From NCBI RefSeq assembly GCF_050920415.1, contig NZ_CP169309.1: a stretch of 64,000 nt of DNA; one strand, 5' to 3'. Shown here piece by piece: positions 15,168-31,608 of this stretch. This DNA comes from Escherichia coli (GTDB taxonomy: Bacteria > Pseudomonadota > Gammaproteobacteria > Enterobacterales > Enterobacteriaceae). The translations under genes and the position numbers were made by a program. The notes under the pieces are model-generated. The model was not told where the DNA came from, ran no database searches, and saw only the letters and a program-made list of their open reading frames with translations. Every line of letters starts with the position of its first letter. The first letter of the stretch is position 1.

Positions 15168-15405
<238 letters not shown>

Positions 15406-24778: not shown

Positions 24779-25348
24779 ATGTCAAGCTTAGCAAAGTCAA
24801 CTGTAAATTGCACTAATAGCATCATCATTTCTGACGTCAAGATTCATATGGATTCAGAGGGTCGTTACTCGCTTAATGACCTTCATGTAGCGTCTGGAAA
24901 GGAGGAAAAACATCAGCCAGCTTTCTTCATGCGTAGAAATGAAACTATTGAATTGATTAATGAAATTTTTAATTCTGCGGATATGCAGAATAAGAATCCC
25001 GTCATTTCTAAGAAAGGTAGATATGGTGGAACATACGTGTGCAAGGAGCTTGTTTACTCCTACGCCATGTGGATTAGCGCAGCATTTGCGCTGAAGGTTA
25101 TCCGCGCATATGACGCAATGGTTACTGCCACACAAGAGAGGAAGGCTATTGGCGGTAAAACTTCAGTAGCTGAACGCACGCCGCTACGCGATGCAGTAAA
25201 CATGCTGGTAGGAAAGAAAGGACTTCGCTATGACGATGCATACAATATGGTTCATCAGCGTTTTGGTATTGACAGCATTGATGAACTTTCAATTGAACAA
25301 ATCCCGCTGGCCGTAGAGTACATCCACAGGGTAGTGCTTGAAGGTGAG
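24779..25348 (+). pseudogene. ant: Antirepressor Ant, 5' part (KilA-N domain), interrupted by IS2
   Basis: KilA-N-like N-terminus; reading frame runs into IS2 left end, which supplies the stop (TAG at 25349-25351). Confidence 0.75.
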
Positions 25349-25439
25349 TAGACTGGCCCCCTGAATCTCCAGACAACCAGTATCACTTAAATAAGTGATA
25401 GTCTTAATACTAGTTTTTAGACTAGTCATTGGAGAACAG

Positions 25440-25805
25440 ATGATTGATGTCTTAGGGCCGGAGAAACGCAGACGGCGTACCACACAGGAAAAGATCGCAA
25501 TTGTTCAGCAGAGCTTTGAACCGGGGATGACGGTCTCCCTCGTTGCCCGGCAACATGGTGTAGCAGCCAGCCAGTTATTTCTCTGGCGTAAGCAATACCA
25601 GGAAGGAAGTCTTACTGCTGTCGCCGCCGGAGAACAGGTTGTTCCTGCCTCTGAACTTGCTGCCGCCATGAAGCAGATTAAAGAACTCCAGCGCCTGCTC
25701 GGCAAGAAAACGATGGAAAATGAACTCCTCAAAGAAGCCGTTGAATATGGACGGGCAAAAAAGTGGATAGCGCACGCGCCCTTATTGCCCGGGGATGGGG
25801 AGTAA
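25440..25805 (+). CDS. insC: IS2 transposase OrfA
   Basis: [41 protein letters not shown].. matches InsC as recalled. Confidence 0.9.
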
Positions 25806-26668
25806 GCTTAGTCAGCCGTTGTCTCCGGGTGTCGCGTGCGCAGTTGCACGTCATTCTCAGACGAACCGATGACTGGATGGATGGCCGCCGCAGTCGTCAC
25901 ACTGATGATACGGATGTGCTTCTCCGTATACACCATGTTATCGGAGAGCTGCCCACGTATGGTTATCGTCGGGTATGGGCGCTGCTTCGCAGACAGGCAG
26001 AACTTGATGGTATGCCTGCGATCAATGCCAAACGTGTTTACCGGATCATGCGCCAGAATGCGCTGTTGCTTGAGCGAAAACCTGCTGTACCGCCATCGAA
26101 ACGGGCACATACAGGCAGAGTGGCCGTGAAAGAAAGCAATCAGCGATGGTGCTCTGACGGGTTCGAGTTCTGCTGTGATAACGGAGAGAGACTGCGTGTC
26201 ACGTTCGCGCTGGACTGCTGTGATCGTGAGGCACTGCACTGGGCGGTGACTACTGGCGGCTTCAACAGTGAAACAGTACAGGACGTCATGCTGGGAGCGG
26301 TGGAACGCCGCTTCGGCGACGATCTTCCGTCGTCTCCAGTGGAGTGGCTGACGGATAATGGTTCATGCTACCGGGCTAATGAAACACGCCAGTTCGCCCG
26401 GATGTTGGGACTTGAACCGAAGAACACGGCGGTGCGGAGTCCGGAGAGTAACGGAATAGCAGAGAGCTTCGTGAAAACGATAAAGCGTGACTACATCAGT
26501 ATCATGCCCAAACCAGACGGGTTAACGGCAGCAAAGAACCTTGCAGAGGCGTTCGAGCATTATAACGAATGGCATCCGCATAGTGCGCTGGGTTATCGCT
26601 CGCCACGGGAATATCTGCGGCAGCGGGCTTGTAATGGGTTAAGTGATAACAGATGTCTGGAAATATAG
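25763..26668 (+). CDS. insD: IS2 transposase OrfB (overlaps orfA in -1 frame)
   Basis: 301 aa; DDE transposase matching InsD as recalled. Confidence 0.9.
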
Positions 26669-26679
26669 GGGCAAATCCA

Positions 26680-27005
26680 GTGAGTTCATTGGCAAACAAG
26701 AGAAGAAAACCAACGAGCTTTCTGCAAAAGAAGCAAACAGCCTTGTATGGTTATGGGATTATGCCAACCGCTCACAGGCATTATTCCGCGAATTGTATCC
26801 GGCATTAAAACAAATTCAATCGAACTATTCCGGCAGATGTCATGACTGCGGTTATGAGTTCTCCCGTATTATCGATATAGCGAGAGACGTTTTAATTAAT
26901 CACACACGAGATGTTGATATCAATGAGCCAGACGGACCAACGAATCTTTCCGCATGGATGAGACTTAAGAATAAAGAATTACCTCCTTCAGTACATAATT
27001 ACTGA
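26680..27005 (+). pseudogene. ant: Antirepressor Ant, 3' part
   Basis: After removing IS2 and one TSD copy (1336 bp) this frame joins 24779..25348 in frame, reconstructing a 296-aa protein. Confidence 0.7.
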
Positions 27006-27105: not shown

Positions 27106-29063
27106 ATGACAGACATTACAGCCAATGTTGTAGTGAGCATGCCTTCGCAACTCTTTACTATGGCCCGCTCTTTTAAAGCCGTAGCTAATGGTAAAATTTA
27201 TATCGGTAAAATTGACACTGACCCGGTAAATCCTGAAAACCAGATTCAGGTTTATGTAGAGAACGAAGACGGCTCTCACGTTCCTGTTTCGCAACCAATC
27301 ATCATTAACGCTGCTGGATATCCGGTATATAACGGACAGATTGCCAAATTCGTAACTGTGCAAGGCCATTCTATGGCTGTATATGATGCGTATGGTGCAC
27401 AGCAGTTCTATTTTCCTAATGTGCTGAAGTATGACCCTGATCAGTTTAAGCAGCAGTTAGAAAGCGATGCTGATGGAATGGGAGATGCATTAGTTACAGT
27501 TAAACAACCGTACACTGGTGCTACTTCTATTTCACAGCACATTAAAAATTCACAGGCTATAAGTGTTATTGATTTTGGCGCTACAATTGACGGAACGCTT
27601 CACCCTTTAAGCGAGATATTTTCAACACTATCAGCCGCTCAGATGGTATATCCATTTGTTTCATCTCTATCTCAATCTGTTGATTATGCTGCGCTTCAGT
27701 CCGCATGTAACACGGGAAAAACAGTGCTTATTCCAAAGGGAACTGGTTACTATAATTCAACTATTTTTCTGAAAAACTCCGTCAGGATTGTTGGAGAGGG
27801 AACTGATACAATAAATAGAGCGCAATCATTTATGTCTATTGTTGGTAATATTTCAGCCTTTGCTTTAGATCAAGGTGATTCACTATCGACAAAAATGATT
27901 CAGATTTTTATTGATGGTCTTTATATTTTCTATGATCCAGGAACCACACCAACGAATCCTGAAGATGATGGTGGGAAAATTGCATTTAATTTCTACTCGA
28001 CAATTCCAAATTCAACAAGCTTGGAAATGTCTGAAATTAAAAACTGTACAGTTCATGGTGCATGGTCATGCTTTAATGATCAGACTGGCACATACTTGAC
28101 AAAACTTACGAATGTGTGGGCCAGAAACTGCCATAATGGTTTTACAAAAGGAACTGGCACTACCATTCTGATGGAAAGATGTTATACATCTGGATGTATA
28201 TCACCATATCAGTTTGGTTCTGTCTTTGCAGCTACAATGATTAACTGTGCCATGGATGGATCAAATATTTCGTTAAACGCAGGTTCGCTTGGTGGGGCTG
28301 GCGTTCATGTTCTTAACACACATAGTTTTAACATTATTGGTTTTGATGCGGAGGGTAACACCATCTCTACAGATGGTTATGGAGAGGCAGCACTATTCCA
28401 TTTCGAAAATAGTAGTGGTGGCATTTCTGGCCTGACTGCACATCAGAACAGCATGCGAAGTGTTGCGCCAAGTGATGCTGGTGTAGTTTCCTACATCAGG
28501 GCGTCAGGTAGCAGCGATGTAAAATTGAGTCATCAGAAGATGATTTATCTGACACCAACACAGTTGCATATACTGGGTCTGGGTATCCCATCATGCTACA
28601 TGCAACTGACACAGCTAAAATAAGCGTCTTTAATAGCAGATTCAGGGCGACTACCACTGGTACCCCTGTCTTAAGTACGCTAAGTACTGGTGATGTATCA
28701 TGGTATGACTGCCCTAAAAAAACAGGACTTATCGTAGATGGTTATTCACAAATAACATCTAAGGAAGGATTGCAAACATCATGCTTCTATACCAGTAAAG
28801 GCTCTACTGCTGTTGCTGAAAATACTCCGACAACACTTTTCTCTCTACCAGATTCGCAAGGTACTTACATTATTAGCGTATGGGGGGCTGGAAGCGGAGA
28901 AAATTACGCATCTACACAACTGGCAATGTATGATGGAGATAAGCTAATTCTTGTTGCGTTAAAAATAGCAGCATTTCTTAGTTTTTCAGCAACAGGGAGA
29001 ATTGTAACCATTACAAGCCAGGGCACAGGCACTTTTAATTGGACCTACACAAAAATAGGTTAA
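27106..29063 (+). pseudogene. Tailspike with P22-like head-binding N-terminus and divergent receptor-binding domain; apparent 1-nt frameshift between 28512 and 28590
   Basis: N-terminus [11 protein letters not shown]...[33 protein letters not shown] matches P22 gp9 as recalled; frame 27106..28623 and frame 28512..29063 overlap, together about 652 codons. Confidence 0.65.
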
Positions 29064-29206
29064 TATATTTTGAACTATCTACGTTATTTAGTTCGTTAAG
29101 TAGACATAGGGCGGTTATCTCTGTTGCTGGTGAGAAAAAAATGAGAAACACAAAGCTTTGCACTGTATTGCAAGGCTTTGCGCTCTTCGATAGTGGTTAA
29201 GGTGGA

Positions 29207-30364
29207 TCACTCCACCTTTTCATCAATCCAATCCGCCCACCACTGCATCATTTCTCTGCGCTTATCGAGATACTGAGCATGGTTGTAAATTCCGCGCACA
29301 GATCCGCCGTTGGCATGTGCCAGTTGCACTTCAATAGCATCAGCAGGCCATTCGTGCTCGTTCATAATCGTGCTGAATTCATGCCTGAATCCGTGACCGC
29401 TTTCCAGACCTTCATAGCCGATTTGTTTGATCACAAGCAGTACCGCGTTCTCGCAGATTGGCTTCTTCTTATCGTTGCGCCCGGCAAAAACAAACTCTGA
29501 TACTGGTTTGGTGATTGAGCTTAGCGTAGTGAGAAGTTCAACCACCTGGTCCGACATCGGGACAACATGAATCTTGCGTCCCTTCATCACACTGGCGTCG
29601 ATAGTGATAATCCTGTTTTCAAAATCGACGTTCTTCCATTGCATGGAACGAAGCTCTTTCGTTCTTAGGGCTGTGTAGCGTAAAACTTTGGTCGCAATGA
29701 GCGATACGATACTTCCTGAAAATGTTGCCAGTGCTTTGTTGAATGCAGGGATCTGGTCTGCAGGAAGAAACGGGAAGTTCTTCTTGCGGTATCCCTTCAT
29801 GGCGTCAGCAAGGTCAGGTGCCGGGTTATATTTAGCCCTTCCGGTGACAATAGCGTAACGGAAAACCTCGCCGCATCTTCTGCGTGCTTTGTTGGCTCGC
29901 TCCATTGCACCGCGATCTTCAAATCTGCGGATTACTTCCAGAAGTTGCATCGGCTCAATATCCTGAATTTCAAGGCTGCCGATGATAGGTAAAATGTCGT
30001 CATCAAACATTTTGGCAAGTTCAGTTGCATAGCCTACTGACCAGACTTGCTTCTTGTGCTCGTACCATTCCTTGTAAATCGCACTAAAGGAATTGTTGTT
30101 AGACGAAGCCTTTTTCGCCTTTACCGGATCGATACCAACCGAGATGTCTTTCCTCGCAGTCCATGCTTTATCCCTTGCCTCCTGCAAAGTCATAAGCGGA
30201 TATTTTCCGACGGTCAGGATTTTCTCCTTACCGTCAATCTTGTAGCGAAGCTGCCATACCTTTTTCCCTGACACAGGGACATAAAGGTACAGGCCATTAC
30301 CATCGAGAAGGCGGTATGGTTTTTCTTTCGGCTTTGCTGCTTCAATCTGCTTAACGGTGAGCAT
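29207..30364 (-). CDS. intS: Tyrosine integrase (IntS-like)
   Basis: MLTVKQIEAAKPKEKPYRLLDGNGLYLYVP.. matches recalled K-12 IntS; start taken at Met13 of the listed ORF. Confidence 0.9.
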   Translation of the reverse strand: MLTVKQIEAAKPKEKPYRLLDGNGLYLYVPVSGKKVWQLRYKIDGKEKILTVGKYPLMTLQEARDKAWTARKDISVGIDPVKAKKASSNNNSFSAIYKEWYEHKKQVWSVGYATELAKMFDDDILPIIGSLEIQDIEPMQLLEVIRRFEDRGAMERANKARRRCGEVFRYAIVTGRAKYNPAPDLADAMKGYRKKNFPFLPADQIPAFNKALATFSGSIVSLIATKVLRYTALRTKELRSMQWKNVDFENRIITIDASVMKGRKIHVVPMSDQVVELLTTLSSITKPVSEFVFAGRNDKKKPICENAVLLVIKQIGYEGLESGHGFRHEFSTIMNEHEWPADAIEVQLAHANGGSVRGIYNHAQYLDKRREMMQWWADWIDEKVE

Positions 30365-30525
30365 GGGTAAAAATCCGGTGGGTAAAATTATTTTATCCAC
30401 TTTTTACCCGTCATGGTGTGCGGCTGTCAACGATCTGACGCGAACCATGACGAACTGTGAATCTACGGAAGGCTTGATATTCAGGGGATTTTGCGGACTG
30501 GTACGGATGGGAGCGAACTGATAAA

Positions 30526-30600
30526 TGGTGTCCCCTGCAGGAATCGAACCTGCAATTAGCCCTTAGGAGGGGCTCGTTATATCCATTTAACTAAGAGGAC
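30526..30600 (-). tRNA. argW: tRNA-Arg (argW), prophage integration site
   Basis: Reverse complement reads GTCCTCTTAGTTAAATGGATATAACGAGCCCCTCCTAAGGGCTAATTGCAGGTTCGATTCCTGCAGGGGACACCA. Confidence 0.95.
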
Positions 30601-30675
30601 AATGCGGCATGAGTATACCCGCTAATGCTCAGCGGGGTAAGTACACTGCCGCTCGATTGCTTAAACCCTCGCCAT

Positions 30676-31608
30676 TTATGCCGGGTTTTTATCATTTTTC
30701 TTAATGTTTTCCGCACGTTCTGCTTTTTGTCGTGCTTCTGCTTTGCGCTTGTTGCTCATGTCGTTACGGATCTGTGCATGACTCATTAACGCGAATATAA
30801 AGGTGCCGCCGCAGATGTTTCCTGCCAGAGTAGGCAGCGCGAAGGGCCAGATGAAATCGCTCCAGTGCAGCGTGCCGTTAAATACCAGATAGAGGATTTC
30901 TACAGAACCGACAACGATGTGGGTGGTGTCTCCGAGGGCGATAAGCCAGGTCATTAATATAATCACTACAATCTTTGCCGCACCCGCTGCAGGAAACATC
31001 CATACCATAGTGGCGATCAGCCAGCCGGAAATGATCGCGTTGGCAAACATCTCACTGGGGGTGTTCTTCATCACATCCATGCCGATTTTTACAAATGCAT
31101 CGCGAGTTTCTTCATTAAAGATAGGCATATATTCAAATGCCCACGCCGCAATACCTGTCCCGAGAATATTCCCCAGCAGCACGACGCCCCATAACCGCAT
31201 AAGTAAGCCGACGTTGCTCATTGTCGGTTTTTGCATGACGGGTAGTACCGCAGTCACGGTGTTTTCGGTAAATAATTGCTGGCGGGCCATAATGACGATA
31301 ATAAAGCCAAAGGTATAACCGAGATTCTCCAGCAAGAAACTGCCCGGCACGCCTTCCAGTTCGACATGAAATATCCCTTTTGCCAGTAGTGAAGCGCCCA
31401 TCGACAGACCCGCCGCAATGGCTGACCACAGTAGCGCCATTGCGTCGCGTTCCAGCTCTTTTTCACCATCCTGGCGGATATGTTCATGAATTGCCATCGC
31501 CCGGGAGGGGAGTCGGTCTTCATCTATTTCTATTTTTTTGCCGCGTTCTTTTTCTTCGCTCTCAACTTCAATTTCGTCGCTGTGTTGATCAATTTTGTCG
31601 TTGTCCAT
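30676..31608 (-). CDS. yfdC: Formate/nitrite-transporter-family inner membrane protein
   Basis: 310 aa polytopic membrane protein; synteny with K-12. Confidence 0.8.
   Translation of the reverse strand: MDNDKIDQHSDEIEVESEEKERGKKIEIDEDRLPSRAMAIHEHIRQDGEKELERDAMALLWSAIAAGLSMGASLLAKGIFHVELEGVPGSFLLENLGYTFGFIIVIMARQQLFTENTVTAVLPVMQKPTMSNVGLLMRLWGVVLLGNILGTGIAAWAFEYMPIFNEETRDAFVKIGMDVMKNTPSEMFANAIISGWLIATMVWMFPAAGAAKIVVIILMTWLIALGDTTHIVVGSVEILYLVFNGTLHWSDFIWPFALPTLAGNICGGTFIFALMSHAQIRNDMSNKRKAEARQKAERAENIKKNDKNPA

Follow-up and report, generated by a model that had tools for sequence, protein, structure and literature searches.

Organization of the locus

The stretch of DNA analyzed here, 64 kb long and referred to as the window, contains an integrase gene and its leader between a P22-type tailspike gene and the tRNA gene argW (Table 1). 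The integrase gene and argW both lie on the minus strand, with the 5′ end of the integrase gene directed toward the tRNA, and argW has its 3′ end regenerated by the att core of the prophage. The 3′ ends of the integrase and tailspike genes are 143 bp apart, close to the estimate of about 145 bp in the initial annotation of this region. The integrase is identical to K-12 IntS at 382/385 residues (99%), and its gene shares 95.8 to 97.7% DNA identity with int of HK620, Sf6, and CUS-3. Three Pfam domains, Arm-DNA-bind_3, Phage_int_M, and Phage_integrase, all score over their gathering scores. The longest open reading frame would begin at a GTG at 30400; this start was rejected in favor of the ATG at 30364 because the mapped transcription start is downstream of it and because K-12 IntS comprises 385 residues.

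To the left of the tailspike-integrase junction, ∼30 kb of contiguous P22-like genes follow one another in canonical order as full-length open reading frames. They comprise primase/helicase, Q, lysis genes, small and large terminase, portal, scaffold, coat, head-completion, and DNA-transfer proteins, ant, and the tailspike, with PHROGs matches for the small and large terminase, portal, major head protein, head closure protein, DNA transfer protein, Q, and endolysin. The window begins in replication genes, and the prophage runs beyond its left edge. Two of these genes are damaged. A 1-nt deletion near 28520, visible as a single 1-nt gap against the intact 652-residue gene of E. coli ETEC1730, splits the tailspike into two frames (27106-28623 and 28593-29063), and ant is interrupted by an IS2 element with an intact 5-bp target duplication.

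Table 1. Coordinates of the genes and of the mapped, transferred, or predicted sites around the argW-integrase junction
Feature	Position	Strand	Basis or remark
P22-type tailspike gene, convergent with intS	27106..29063	+	Pfam Head_binding, E = 1.7e-67, residues 1-113
Probable intS intrinsic terminator, GCGCAAAGCCUUGCA-AUACAG-UGCAAAGCUUUGUGU, then UUCUCAUUUUUUU	29135..29183	-	Folding, inverted repeat, HK620 annotation
Hairpin AAGGTGGA-TCAC-TCCACCTT over the intS stop codon, function doubtful	29199..29218	+	Folding
intS, 385-aa tyrosine integrase with arm-DNA-binding N-terminal domain	29207..30364	-	ATG to TGA
Candidate arm-type site GGGTAAAAA, assigned P'4	30365..30373	+	Directly abuts the intS start codon
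Candidate arm-type site GGGTAAAAT, assigned P'3	30380..30388	+	In transcribed leader, orientation opposite to P'1
Candidate arm-type site GGATAAAAT (plus strand ATTTTATCC), assigned P'2	30390..30398	-	Inverted repeat and pattern match; spans the transcription start
Predicted intS transcription starts, T at -31 and A at -30	30394..30395	-	Transferred from K-12 primer extension; 30-nt leader
IntS arm-type site P'1, GGGTAAAAA on minus strand (plus strand TTTTTACCC)	30401..30409	-	Overlaps the -10 box (PMC2951348)
PintS, -35 TTGACA (30430..30425), 18-nt spacer, -10 TAAAAA (30406..30401)	30401..30430	-	Hexamers as in PMC2951348 (TTGACA, TAaAAa)
TorI block I3;I4;I5, CACAGTTCGTCATGGTTCGCGTCAGATC	30432..30459	-	K-12 2464472-2464499, -95 to -68 (PMC2951348); abuts the -35 box
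TorI (excisionase/RDF) block I1;I2, ATCAGTTCGCTCCCATCCGTACCAGTCC	30495..30522	-	K-12 2464409-2464436, -158 to -131 from ATG (PMC2951348)
attL core CTGCAGGGGACACCAT, 16-bp crossover sequence common to phage and argW	30525..30540	-	Exact KplE1 core (PMC2951348)
argW, tRNA-Arg(CCT)	30526..30600	-	ARAGORN; Rfam tRNA, 63.4 bits; identical to K-12 argW over the aligned part

Attachment core and intS leader

The attL core corresponds to the sequences annotated as 'attP core' in HK620 and Sf6. Homology to free phage genomes ends at 30540, and one boundary of the prophage is fixed at this position. With up to three mismatches allowed, the core occurs once in the 64-kb window, and no core-like sequence lies between the tailspike and the integrase gene (29064-29206), in agreement with the initial annotation, in which this gap was described as free of a tRNA-derived att copy. 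The paired P-arm sequence GGGTAAAATAGCGGGTAAAAT, composed of two GGGTAAAAT sites, was not found in the window either. Thus attR must lie past the left edge of the window, together with the predicted torI-like xis and P-arm sites of that prophage end. In 28900-30750, a permissive Rfam search returned only the tRNA and one sub-threshold chance match.

The attL sites were reportedly first mapped by Panis et al. in 2007 (J Biol Chem). Mapping in the K-12 leader has covered the 16-bp core, five TorI sites, PintS with its start site, and four P' sites, the arm-type sites of IntS, all of which contain TAAA (Panis et al. 2010, PMC2951348). The coordinates of that study, in which the intS transcripts start at 2464536/2464537 and the attL clone spans -223 to +64 (2464344-2464630), were transferred to the present leader through an alignment with the K-12 leader. 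The comparison with the K-12 argW-intS junction that had been proposed initially yields 217/221 identical base pairs, and none of the four substitutions falls in the core, the TorI pentamers, the promoter hexamers, or the P' sites. The published coordinates fall exactly on the expected bases for the core, the TorI blocks, TTGACA, TAAAAA, and the T/A start sites. Approximately 35% of complete E. coli genomes have this argW-int leader.

The five TorI pentamers at the mapped positions read GTTCG, GTCCG, GTTCG, GTTCG, and GATCG. Those of block I1;I2 (GTTCG and GTCCG) are invariant in the Klebsiella phages Chronis and RCIP0114, and I4 and I5 are the sites through which TorI represses PintS in K-12 (PMC2951348). 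The PintS hexamers are identical in K-12, HK620, Sf6, and CUS-3, the spacer differs from that of K-12 by one substitution (A for T), and a 'prophage excision' promoter is annotated at the same position in HK620. With its tRNA gene upstream of an integrase gene of the same orientation, here the minus strand, and a putative promoter inside attL, the locus has the shape termed 'STI' in PMC2951348.

Repeats in the intS leader and control of intS

The initial annotation listed GGGTAAAAA at 30365-30373, GGGTAAAAT at 30380-30388, and an inverted TTTTTACCC at 30401-30409 as candidate arm-type or autoregulatory sites. All three are present and match published P' sites of K-12 (PMC2951348), and a fourth, degenerate inverted copy, GGATAAAAT at 30390-30398 on the minus strand, had been overlooked. 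A repeat search shows that the four copies form a nested palindrome; the numbering P'2 to P'4 in the present leader is our putative assignment, made from the sequence. Shuffles predict 3.5 occurrences of the pattern GGRTAAAA in the 64-kb window; there are 12, and four of these fall within 45 bp. By simple arithmetic, the chance of finding three further copies within 45 bp of any one copy is ∼3e-8.

Absence from related intS leaders, which the initial annotation had named as contrary to its reading, is not what is seen; the copies are kept, or nearly so, in K-12, HK620, Sf6, CUS-3, and Klebsiella phages. The copy at 30365-30373 is conserved in all relatives compared (as GGGTAAAAT in the Klebsiella phages), and the copy at 30380-30388 is conserved in K-12, HK620, Sf6, and CUS-3 and reads GGGTAAAGT in the Klebsiella phages. 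P'1 is invariant in the Klebsiella phages, and the copy at 30390-30398 is the least conserved, being GAGTAAAAC there. In Chronis, the four copies keep 9/9, 6/9, 8/9, and 8/9 bases, in a Klebsiella module that is only ∼76% identical. More distant argW-type leaders carry a GGGCAYAT-like motif instead, in the same four positions. The GGGTAAAAT motif also occurs twice on the other attP arm in HK620 and likewise in the attR of K-12, and its presence on both sides of the core is the pattern that would be expected of arm-type sites.

The near-identity to K-12 suggests that IntS and TorI work in the present strain as they do there. In the free phage, attP has xis (torI/hkaC) on one side and the 5′ end of int on the other. 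Integration separates int from the early-left operon and leaves it beside the tailspike, and int in the prophage would be transcribed from its own sigma-70 promoter inside attL. Reading from the tRNA, the leader presents the 16-bp core, two blocks of sites for TorI, the recombination directionality factor (RDF), the promoter, and four IntS arm-type sites (GGRTAAAA), whose nested palindrome covers the -10 box and the start site as well as the 30-nt 5′ UTR. Binding of the N-terminal arm-binding domain of IntS to the arm sites would build the excisive intasome, while IntS on the site over the -10 box would repress its own transcription ∼five-fold and TorI bound beside the -35 box would repress it further. 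Together, autorepression and repression by TorI would keep Int low and constant and place excision under the control of RDF supply.

In K-12, both IntS and TorI bind their sites and repress PintS, and excision requires TorI (PMC2951348). IntS represses its own promoter ∼five-fold there, and P'1, which overlaps the -10 box, is implicated in this autorepression (PMC2951348). The authors ascribe repression to the site at the -10 box. The site is not rigorously proven even in K-12, because P'1 and the -10 box were inseparable (PMC2951348) and because single P'2 to P'4 mutants are still repressed. An autoregulatory role for the repeats, as initially considered, can be retained for the inverted copy, P'1, whereas the two direct copies are not implicated: changing TAAA to ATTT singly in P'2, P'3, or P'4 left repression at 4.0 to 5.2-fold (PMC2951348).

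A rather unlikely alternative assigns autorepression to the two direct GGGTAAAA copies (30365-30373 and 30380-30388) of the transcribed leader, at which bound IntS would block elongation or access of the ribosome; their role would then go beyond that of arm sites for recombination. Their placement fits this role: transcription starts upstream of both, at 30394, and the copy nearer the gene adjoins the ATG. They are also invariant or nearly so in distant relatives, and PintS is repressed ∼five-fold by IntS in K-12 (PMC2951348). Set against these points are the published assignment of repression to the -10 box and the repression retained by the K-12 mutants, which were single-site mutants only and leave room for redundancy among the sites. 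Repression through P'1 is the preferred reading. The notion that the GGGTAAAA copies arose by chance from the A+T richness of the promoter and leader, with no protein-binding role, draws on the A+T-rich leader and on the coincidence of one copy with the -10 hexamer, but is already effectively refuted by clustering far above chance, by conservation across relatives with diverging flanks, by the pairing of the same motif on the opposite att arm, and by the earlier publication of IntS sites on attL that is cited in PMC2951348.

The attL end of an argW prophage and its relatives

The segment 29064-30540 very probably forms the attL end of a prophage of the P22-like (Lederbergvirus) type that has inserted into argW, with a site-specific recombination module of the KplE1/CPS-53-HK620-Sf6-CUS-3 type, as judged from its sequence. 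All sequence data are compatible with this explanation and no contradiction was seen. The argW-integrase junction is ordinary and already known, being explained by earlier work on KplE1 (CPS-53) in E. coli K-12. The two elements share the integrase (99%), the 16-bp core, the five TorI pentamer sites, the -35 and -10 hexamers of PintS, four TAAA-containing P' sites, and the orientation relative to argW and yfdC; the order in K-12 is argW-attL-intS ... torI-attR. They differ in what follows the integrase. In K-12, gtrABS (yfdGHI) lies directly downstream of intS in a 10-kb remnant, whereas here the tailspike adjoins int and is part of ∼30 kb of P22-like late genes.

The phages HK620, Sf6, and CUS-3 resemble the present prophage in this latter respect. 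As here, ∼160 bp separate their attP or attL core from the int ATG downstream of it, with a promoter annotated in this interval, and int occupies the genome end next to the tailspike, in convergent orientation to the late operon. An attP upstream of int is the normal layout for this subgroup of P22-like phages (PMC2951348). In HK620 and Sf6, the position of the attP core ahead of the int start keeps int at the tailspike end of the prophage. Each of these phages carries a lysogenic-conversion gene between tailspike and int, namely oac in Sf6, an O-antigen modification gene in HK620, and neuO in CUS-3; the slot is empty in the present prophage, which has only the 143-bp gap. The receptor-binding part of the present tailspike also differs.

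Phage P22 itself, which integrates at thrW, shares the overall phage type, the late gene order, and the tailspike head-binding domain. Its attP core, however, is found past the 3′ end of int, between gtrA and int, whereas the present core is at the int 5′ end. In P22, int and xis are co-oriented and adjacent with the core at the int 3′ end, and int and gene 9 thus come to lie at opposite ends of the prophage. This classic att layout is not that of the present locus, where no core lies downstream of the int stop or elsewhere in the window besides 30525-30540, and the distinction drawn from P22 in the initial annotation holds.

The same annotation had described the locus as an island-like arrangement of tRNA, integrase, and cargo as in CPS-53. 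The CPS-53-type layout is borne out by the integrase and the leader, but 'island-like' is misleading, as the element is a nearly full P22-like prophage. A reading as a cryptic island or remnant comparable to CPS-53 of K-12, made up of a tRNA, an integrase, and some cargo in place of a complete P22-like prophage, is unlikely. The recombination module is indeed that of CPS-53, the tailspike is frameshifted, IS2 splits ant between intact 5-bp duplications, and the far end of the prophage is outside the window, points that speak for a remnant. CPS-53, however, is only ∼10 kb long and has none of the P22-like genes that extend here for ∼30 kb in canonical order and at full length. In the preferred reading of an argW-integrated P22-like prophage, the lesions in the tailspike gene and ant suggest that the prophage may no longer be viable.

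The value of the locus lies in a secure annotation, attL of an argW-integrated P22-like prophage with an IntS/TorI module, and it has little significance beyond that. The K-12 experiments allow the core, the TorI sites, PintS, and the four arm sites of IntS to be placed here base for base. At the other boundary, a second CTGCAGGGGACACCAT is predicted, preceded by two GGGTAAAAT copies and a torI-like gene.

The satellite phage P4 offers a possible functional parallel to the KplE1-type module. Its int is transcribed away from att, the promoter overlaps Int sites, and Int and the RDF both lower expression; autoregulation of the P4 integrase was described by Piazzolla et al. (cited in PMC2951348). 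P4 differs from the argW-type module in its att site and sequence. The P4 RDF, Vis, has been proposed to act on int mRNA, whereas TorI binds DNA beside the -35 box (PMC2951348).

Hairpins and terminators in the int 3′ region

The gap between the tailspike and the integrase gene and the end of int contain two stem-loops. The upstream one in the int transcript had been noted initially as a hairpin at 29201-29220 that overlaps the int stop, and it is present: a core of GGTGGA-TCAC-TCCACC followed by TTTT overlaps the int TGA (29207-29209). For the full hairpin, with its 8-bp stem, the folding energy is -13.2 kcal/mol on the plus strand (z = -3.4); the minus strand gives -12.4, and z is about -3.5 for the two. 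Its conservation was compared in K-12, Sf6, CUS-3, PEC422, and one Klebsiella phage. Two of the eight pairs are broken in K-12 (GCGACC for TCCACC) and one or two stem positions are altered in CUS-3, in neither case with compensating changes, and in Sf6 the sequence diverges at this point and the hairpin is absent.

The second stem-loop occupies 29151-29180 within the 29135-29183 feature, 30 nt farther on the int strand. It has a folding energy of -21.9 kcal/mol (z = -3.5) and is followed by a run of seven T. It corresponds to the 'terminator for prophage excision transcript' annotated in HK620, and its stem is kept in K-12 and PEC422. The consensus scan for terminators made no call at 29135-29183, a miss that is explained by the T run beginning more than 2 nt past the stem. 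This stem-loop is probably the intrinsic terminator of intS.

The suggestion that the hairpin at 29199-29218 is a bidirectional intrinsic terminator, serving both the tailspike (late) and int transcripts, did not hold up and is improbable. Its stem is stable on both strands, and on the plus strand four U follow the 6-bp core stem, but in the tail after the full 8-bp stem (TTCATC) the run shrinks to two. The minus-strand tail AACCACUAUCG (AACCAC) has no U run, and on that strand the stem lies within the last translated codons of int. The scan called no terminator at 29199-29218 on either strand, the stem is broken, altered, or missing in relatives, and the stronger U7-tailed hairpin lies at the position of the HK620 int terminator.

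A separate reading of the gap is more speculative still. The two stem-loops could act as staggered terminators in opposite directions, 29199-29218 for the late transcript and 29151-29180 for int, giving a 3′ overlap of ∼60 to 90 nt whose duplex might lower int mRNA during lytic growth; this is improbable. The first hairpin of this pair is weak and is not conserved. If the arrangement were real, the overlap would constitute a functional analogue of the sib retroregulation of phage lambda.

The argW junction and layout

The only tRNA gene in the window is tRNA-Arg(CCT) (argW), called by ARAGORN with agreement from Rfam. The integrase gene, int, follows downstream of argW, also on the minus strand. 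Its frame of 385 codons encodes a protein with the Pfam domains Arm-DNA-bind_3, Phage_int_M, and Phage_integrase, which shares 382 of 385 residues with IntS from CPS-53 (KplE1), a cryptic prophage of K-12. As in K-12, the other side of the tRNA is flanked by yfdC, a 310-aa formate/nitrite-transporter-family gene. The order tailspike, intS, tRNA-Arg, yfdC is annotated in many complete E. coli genomes.

A megablast search against phage genomes matches 29131-30540 to HK620, Sf6, CUS-3, HK633, N7, Kapi1, and others at 95.8 to 97.7% identity; the match to free phage genomes ends 15 nt into the tRNA, which marks a junction between phage and chromosome. The mosaic boundary of the int module varies between phages (29131, 29159, 29171, 29214). 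The equivalent of 30525-30540 is annotated in GenBank as 'attP core' in HK620 and Sf6, where an int promoter ('prophage excision', pX) is marked between this core and the start codon of int, and as 'attL core' in CUS-3. Panis et al. 2010 (PMC2951348) give this same 16-nt sequence as the duplicated core of KplE1. The comparison with the K-12 argW-intS junction, proposed in the initial annotation, reveals four differences over the 221 bp that begin within argW and end 25 nt into int, and the mapped elements are intact. Of 5426 complete genomes, 1897 carry the 160-bp leader, and nearly all of these copies reach ≥95% identity.

The contrast drawn with P22 is correct according to the phage annotations. 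P22 is ordered gene 9, gtrCBA, attP core, int 3′ end, with xis beyond int, and thus int and gene 9 occupy opposite prophage ends; HK620 and Sf6, unlike P22, have the core upstream of where int starts. The description of the region as an island-like tRNA-int-cargo arrangement holds for the CPS-53-type layout but not for an island with cargo, which is rejected because the 30 kb left of int encode primase/helicase, Q, endolysin, small and large terminase, portal, coat, head-closure and DNA-transfer proteins, ant, and the tailspike. The tailspike gene (P22 head-binding domain, Pfam E = 1.7e-67) is convergent with int. The slot between them harbors a lysogenic-conversion gene in Sf6 (oac), HK620 (O-antigen modification), and CUS-3 (neuO), and its equivalent in K-12 CPS-53 holds gtrABS, whereas in the window it is an empty gap of 143 bp (29064-29206).

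Features of the argW-int region
Feature	Position	Strand	Sequence or remark
tRNA-Arg(CCT)	30526-30600	minus	
attL core	30525-30540	minus	CTGCAGGGGACACCAT
TorI block I1;I2	30495-30522	minus	ATCAGTTCGCTCCCATCCGTACCAGTCC; transferred from K-12
TorI block I3;I4;I5	30432-30459	minus	CACAGTTCGTCATGGTTCGCGTCAGATC; transferred from K-12
-35 box	30430-30425	minus	TTGACA
-10 box	30406-30401	minus	TAAAAA
Inverted copy, P'1	30401-30409		TTTTTACCC
Degenerate copy	30390-30398	minus	GGATAAAAT
Transcription starts	30395 / 30394	minus	T, A; transferred from K-12
Direct copy	30380-30388		GGGTAAAAT
Direct copy	30365-30373		GGGTAAAAA
int	30364-29207	minus	ATG at 30364, TGA 29207-29209
Short hairpin	29201-29220		GGTGGA-TCAC-TCCACC plus TTTT
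Long hairpin	29151-29180		then UUCUCAUUUUUUU on int strand
Tailspike gene	27106-29063	plus	

Arm-type sites in the int leader

The initial annotation gave exact coordinates for three repeats and a hairpin, and overlooked a fourth, degenerate copy, GGATAAAAT. Together the four make up a nested palindrome (repeats I6 and I8). The window contains 12 occurrences of GGRTAAAA where 3.5 are expected, and four of the 12 lie within 45 bp, a chance of ~3e-8 by our arithmetic. K-12 has four IntS arm-type sites, P'1 to P'4, each containing TAAA, with P'1 overlapping the -10 box (PMC2951348). Since the stretch from the -10 box to the ATG holds exactly four TAAA-containing GGRTAAAA copies, one of them on the -10 box, the inverted TTTTTACCC is P'1. 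The direct copies are the two arm-type sites closest to the ATG, within the 30-nt 5′ UTR; the numbering of P'2 to P'4 in the window is one that we infer. The proposed arm-type or autoregulatory sites thus correspond to the published IntS P' sites of K-12 (PMC2951348).

The copies persist in related leaders. Two Klebsiella phages with a module only ~76% identical conserve all four well while the flanks have diverged: P'1 is identical, two copies have one base change each, and P'2 carries three changes in its nine bases in Chronis and four in RCIP0114. These phages also retain the core, the -35 box, and the TorI pentamers, of which one or two of the five show G-to-C changes. Two direct GGGTAAAAT copies lie ~60 bp from the core on the other attP arm of HK620 and in K-12 attR, as expected if the N-terminal domain of the integrase binds sites on both arms. 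In two argW-type leaders of greater distance, another repeated motif (GGGCATAT, GGGCACAT, inverted GGTCATTT and GGGCATAA) occupies the same four positions, which are thus conserved although their sequence has changed. Aligned to 30365-30409, the distant leaders of ECO95 1-6-1 and S.Kent 1-2-1 retain the core, -35 box, and site spacing, with a GGGCAYAT-like motif replacing GGRTAAAA. Judged from these alignments, arm sites may co-vary with the integrase N-terminal domain.

Predicted control of int

The K-12 attL clone spans -223 to +64 (2464344-2464630), with intS starts at 2464536/7 and TorI blocks at 2464409-36 and 2464472-99 (PMC2951348). Transfer of these coordinates to the window finds all expected bases in place, and near-identity to the K-12 module suggests how int would be controlled. 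With attP between xis and int, integration would cut int off from the early-left operon, so int would be expressed only from its promoter PintS inside attL. IntS lowers PintS about five-fold in K-12 (6368 versus 1270 units), and TorI, the RDF, represses it by a similar degree, acting at I4 and I5 adjoining the -35 box (PMC2951348). Repression persists with single P'2, P'3, or P'4 mutations, and a P'1 mutation is inseparable from loss of the -10 box (PMC2951348). Excision efficiency has a narrow IntS optimum, and the authors propose that Int is held low and constant while RDF supply governs excision (PMC2951348). IntS and TorI would likewise repress PintS at the window's leader.

Hairpins at the int 3′ end

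The short hairpin, proposed as a bidirectional terminator, folds stably on both strands (-13.2 and -12.4 kcal/mol), but a consensus scan calls no terminator there. On the int strand no run of U follows it, and the stem falls within translated codons; on the plus strand just two U follow the full stem. K-12 and CUS-3 have uncompensated breaks in the stem, and the Sf6 sequence diverges there, making a function doubtful. The long hairpin (-21.9 kcal/mol) is retained in K-12 and PEC422 and is the counterpart of the HK620 feature 'terminator for prophage excision transcript'; we take it as the probable int terminator. The initial observation is therefore confirmed, and its interpretation stands for layout and repeats, but the terminator is wrong or unsupported; the correct parts have been in the literature since 2001-2010.

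Other lesions and repeats

The tailspike gene is split into two frames (505-aa and 156-aa ORFs) near 28520 by a 1-nt deletion (GATGTTAAAA to GATGTAAAA) relative to an intact 652-aa homologue, 97.8% identical, in porcine E. coli ETEC1730; the lesion is either a true pseudogene or a sequencing error. ETEC1730 (NZ_CP122832.1, 3566-4075) and sister strains carry the same tailspike and intergenic region with only the last ~86 nt of intS, adjoining torT, and hence an int-truncated copy of the prophage end elsewhere in the chromosome. The P22-type antirepressor gene ant (24779-27005) is interrupted by a 1331-bp IS2 copy (25349-26679) with an intact 5-bp target duplication, GTGAG, at 25344-25348 and 26680-26684, leaving a KilA-N part (24779-25351) and a P22_AR_C part (26643-27005). 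Just past the coat gene, a CAGAGC tandem run (15313-15358) comprises ~46 nt of the 6-nt unit, reported by the repeat search as three overlapping 22-nt copies with 12-nt spacing.
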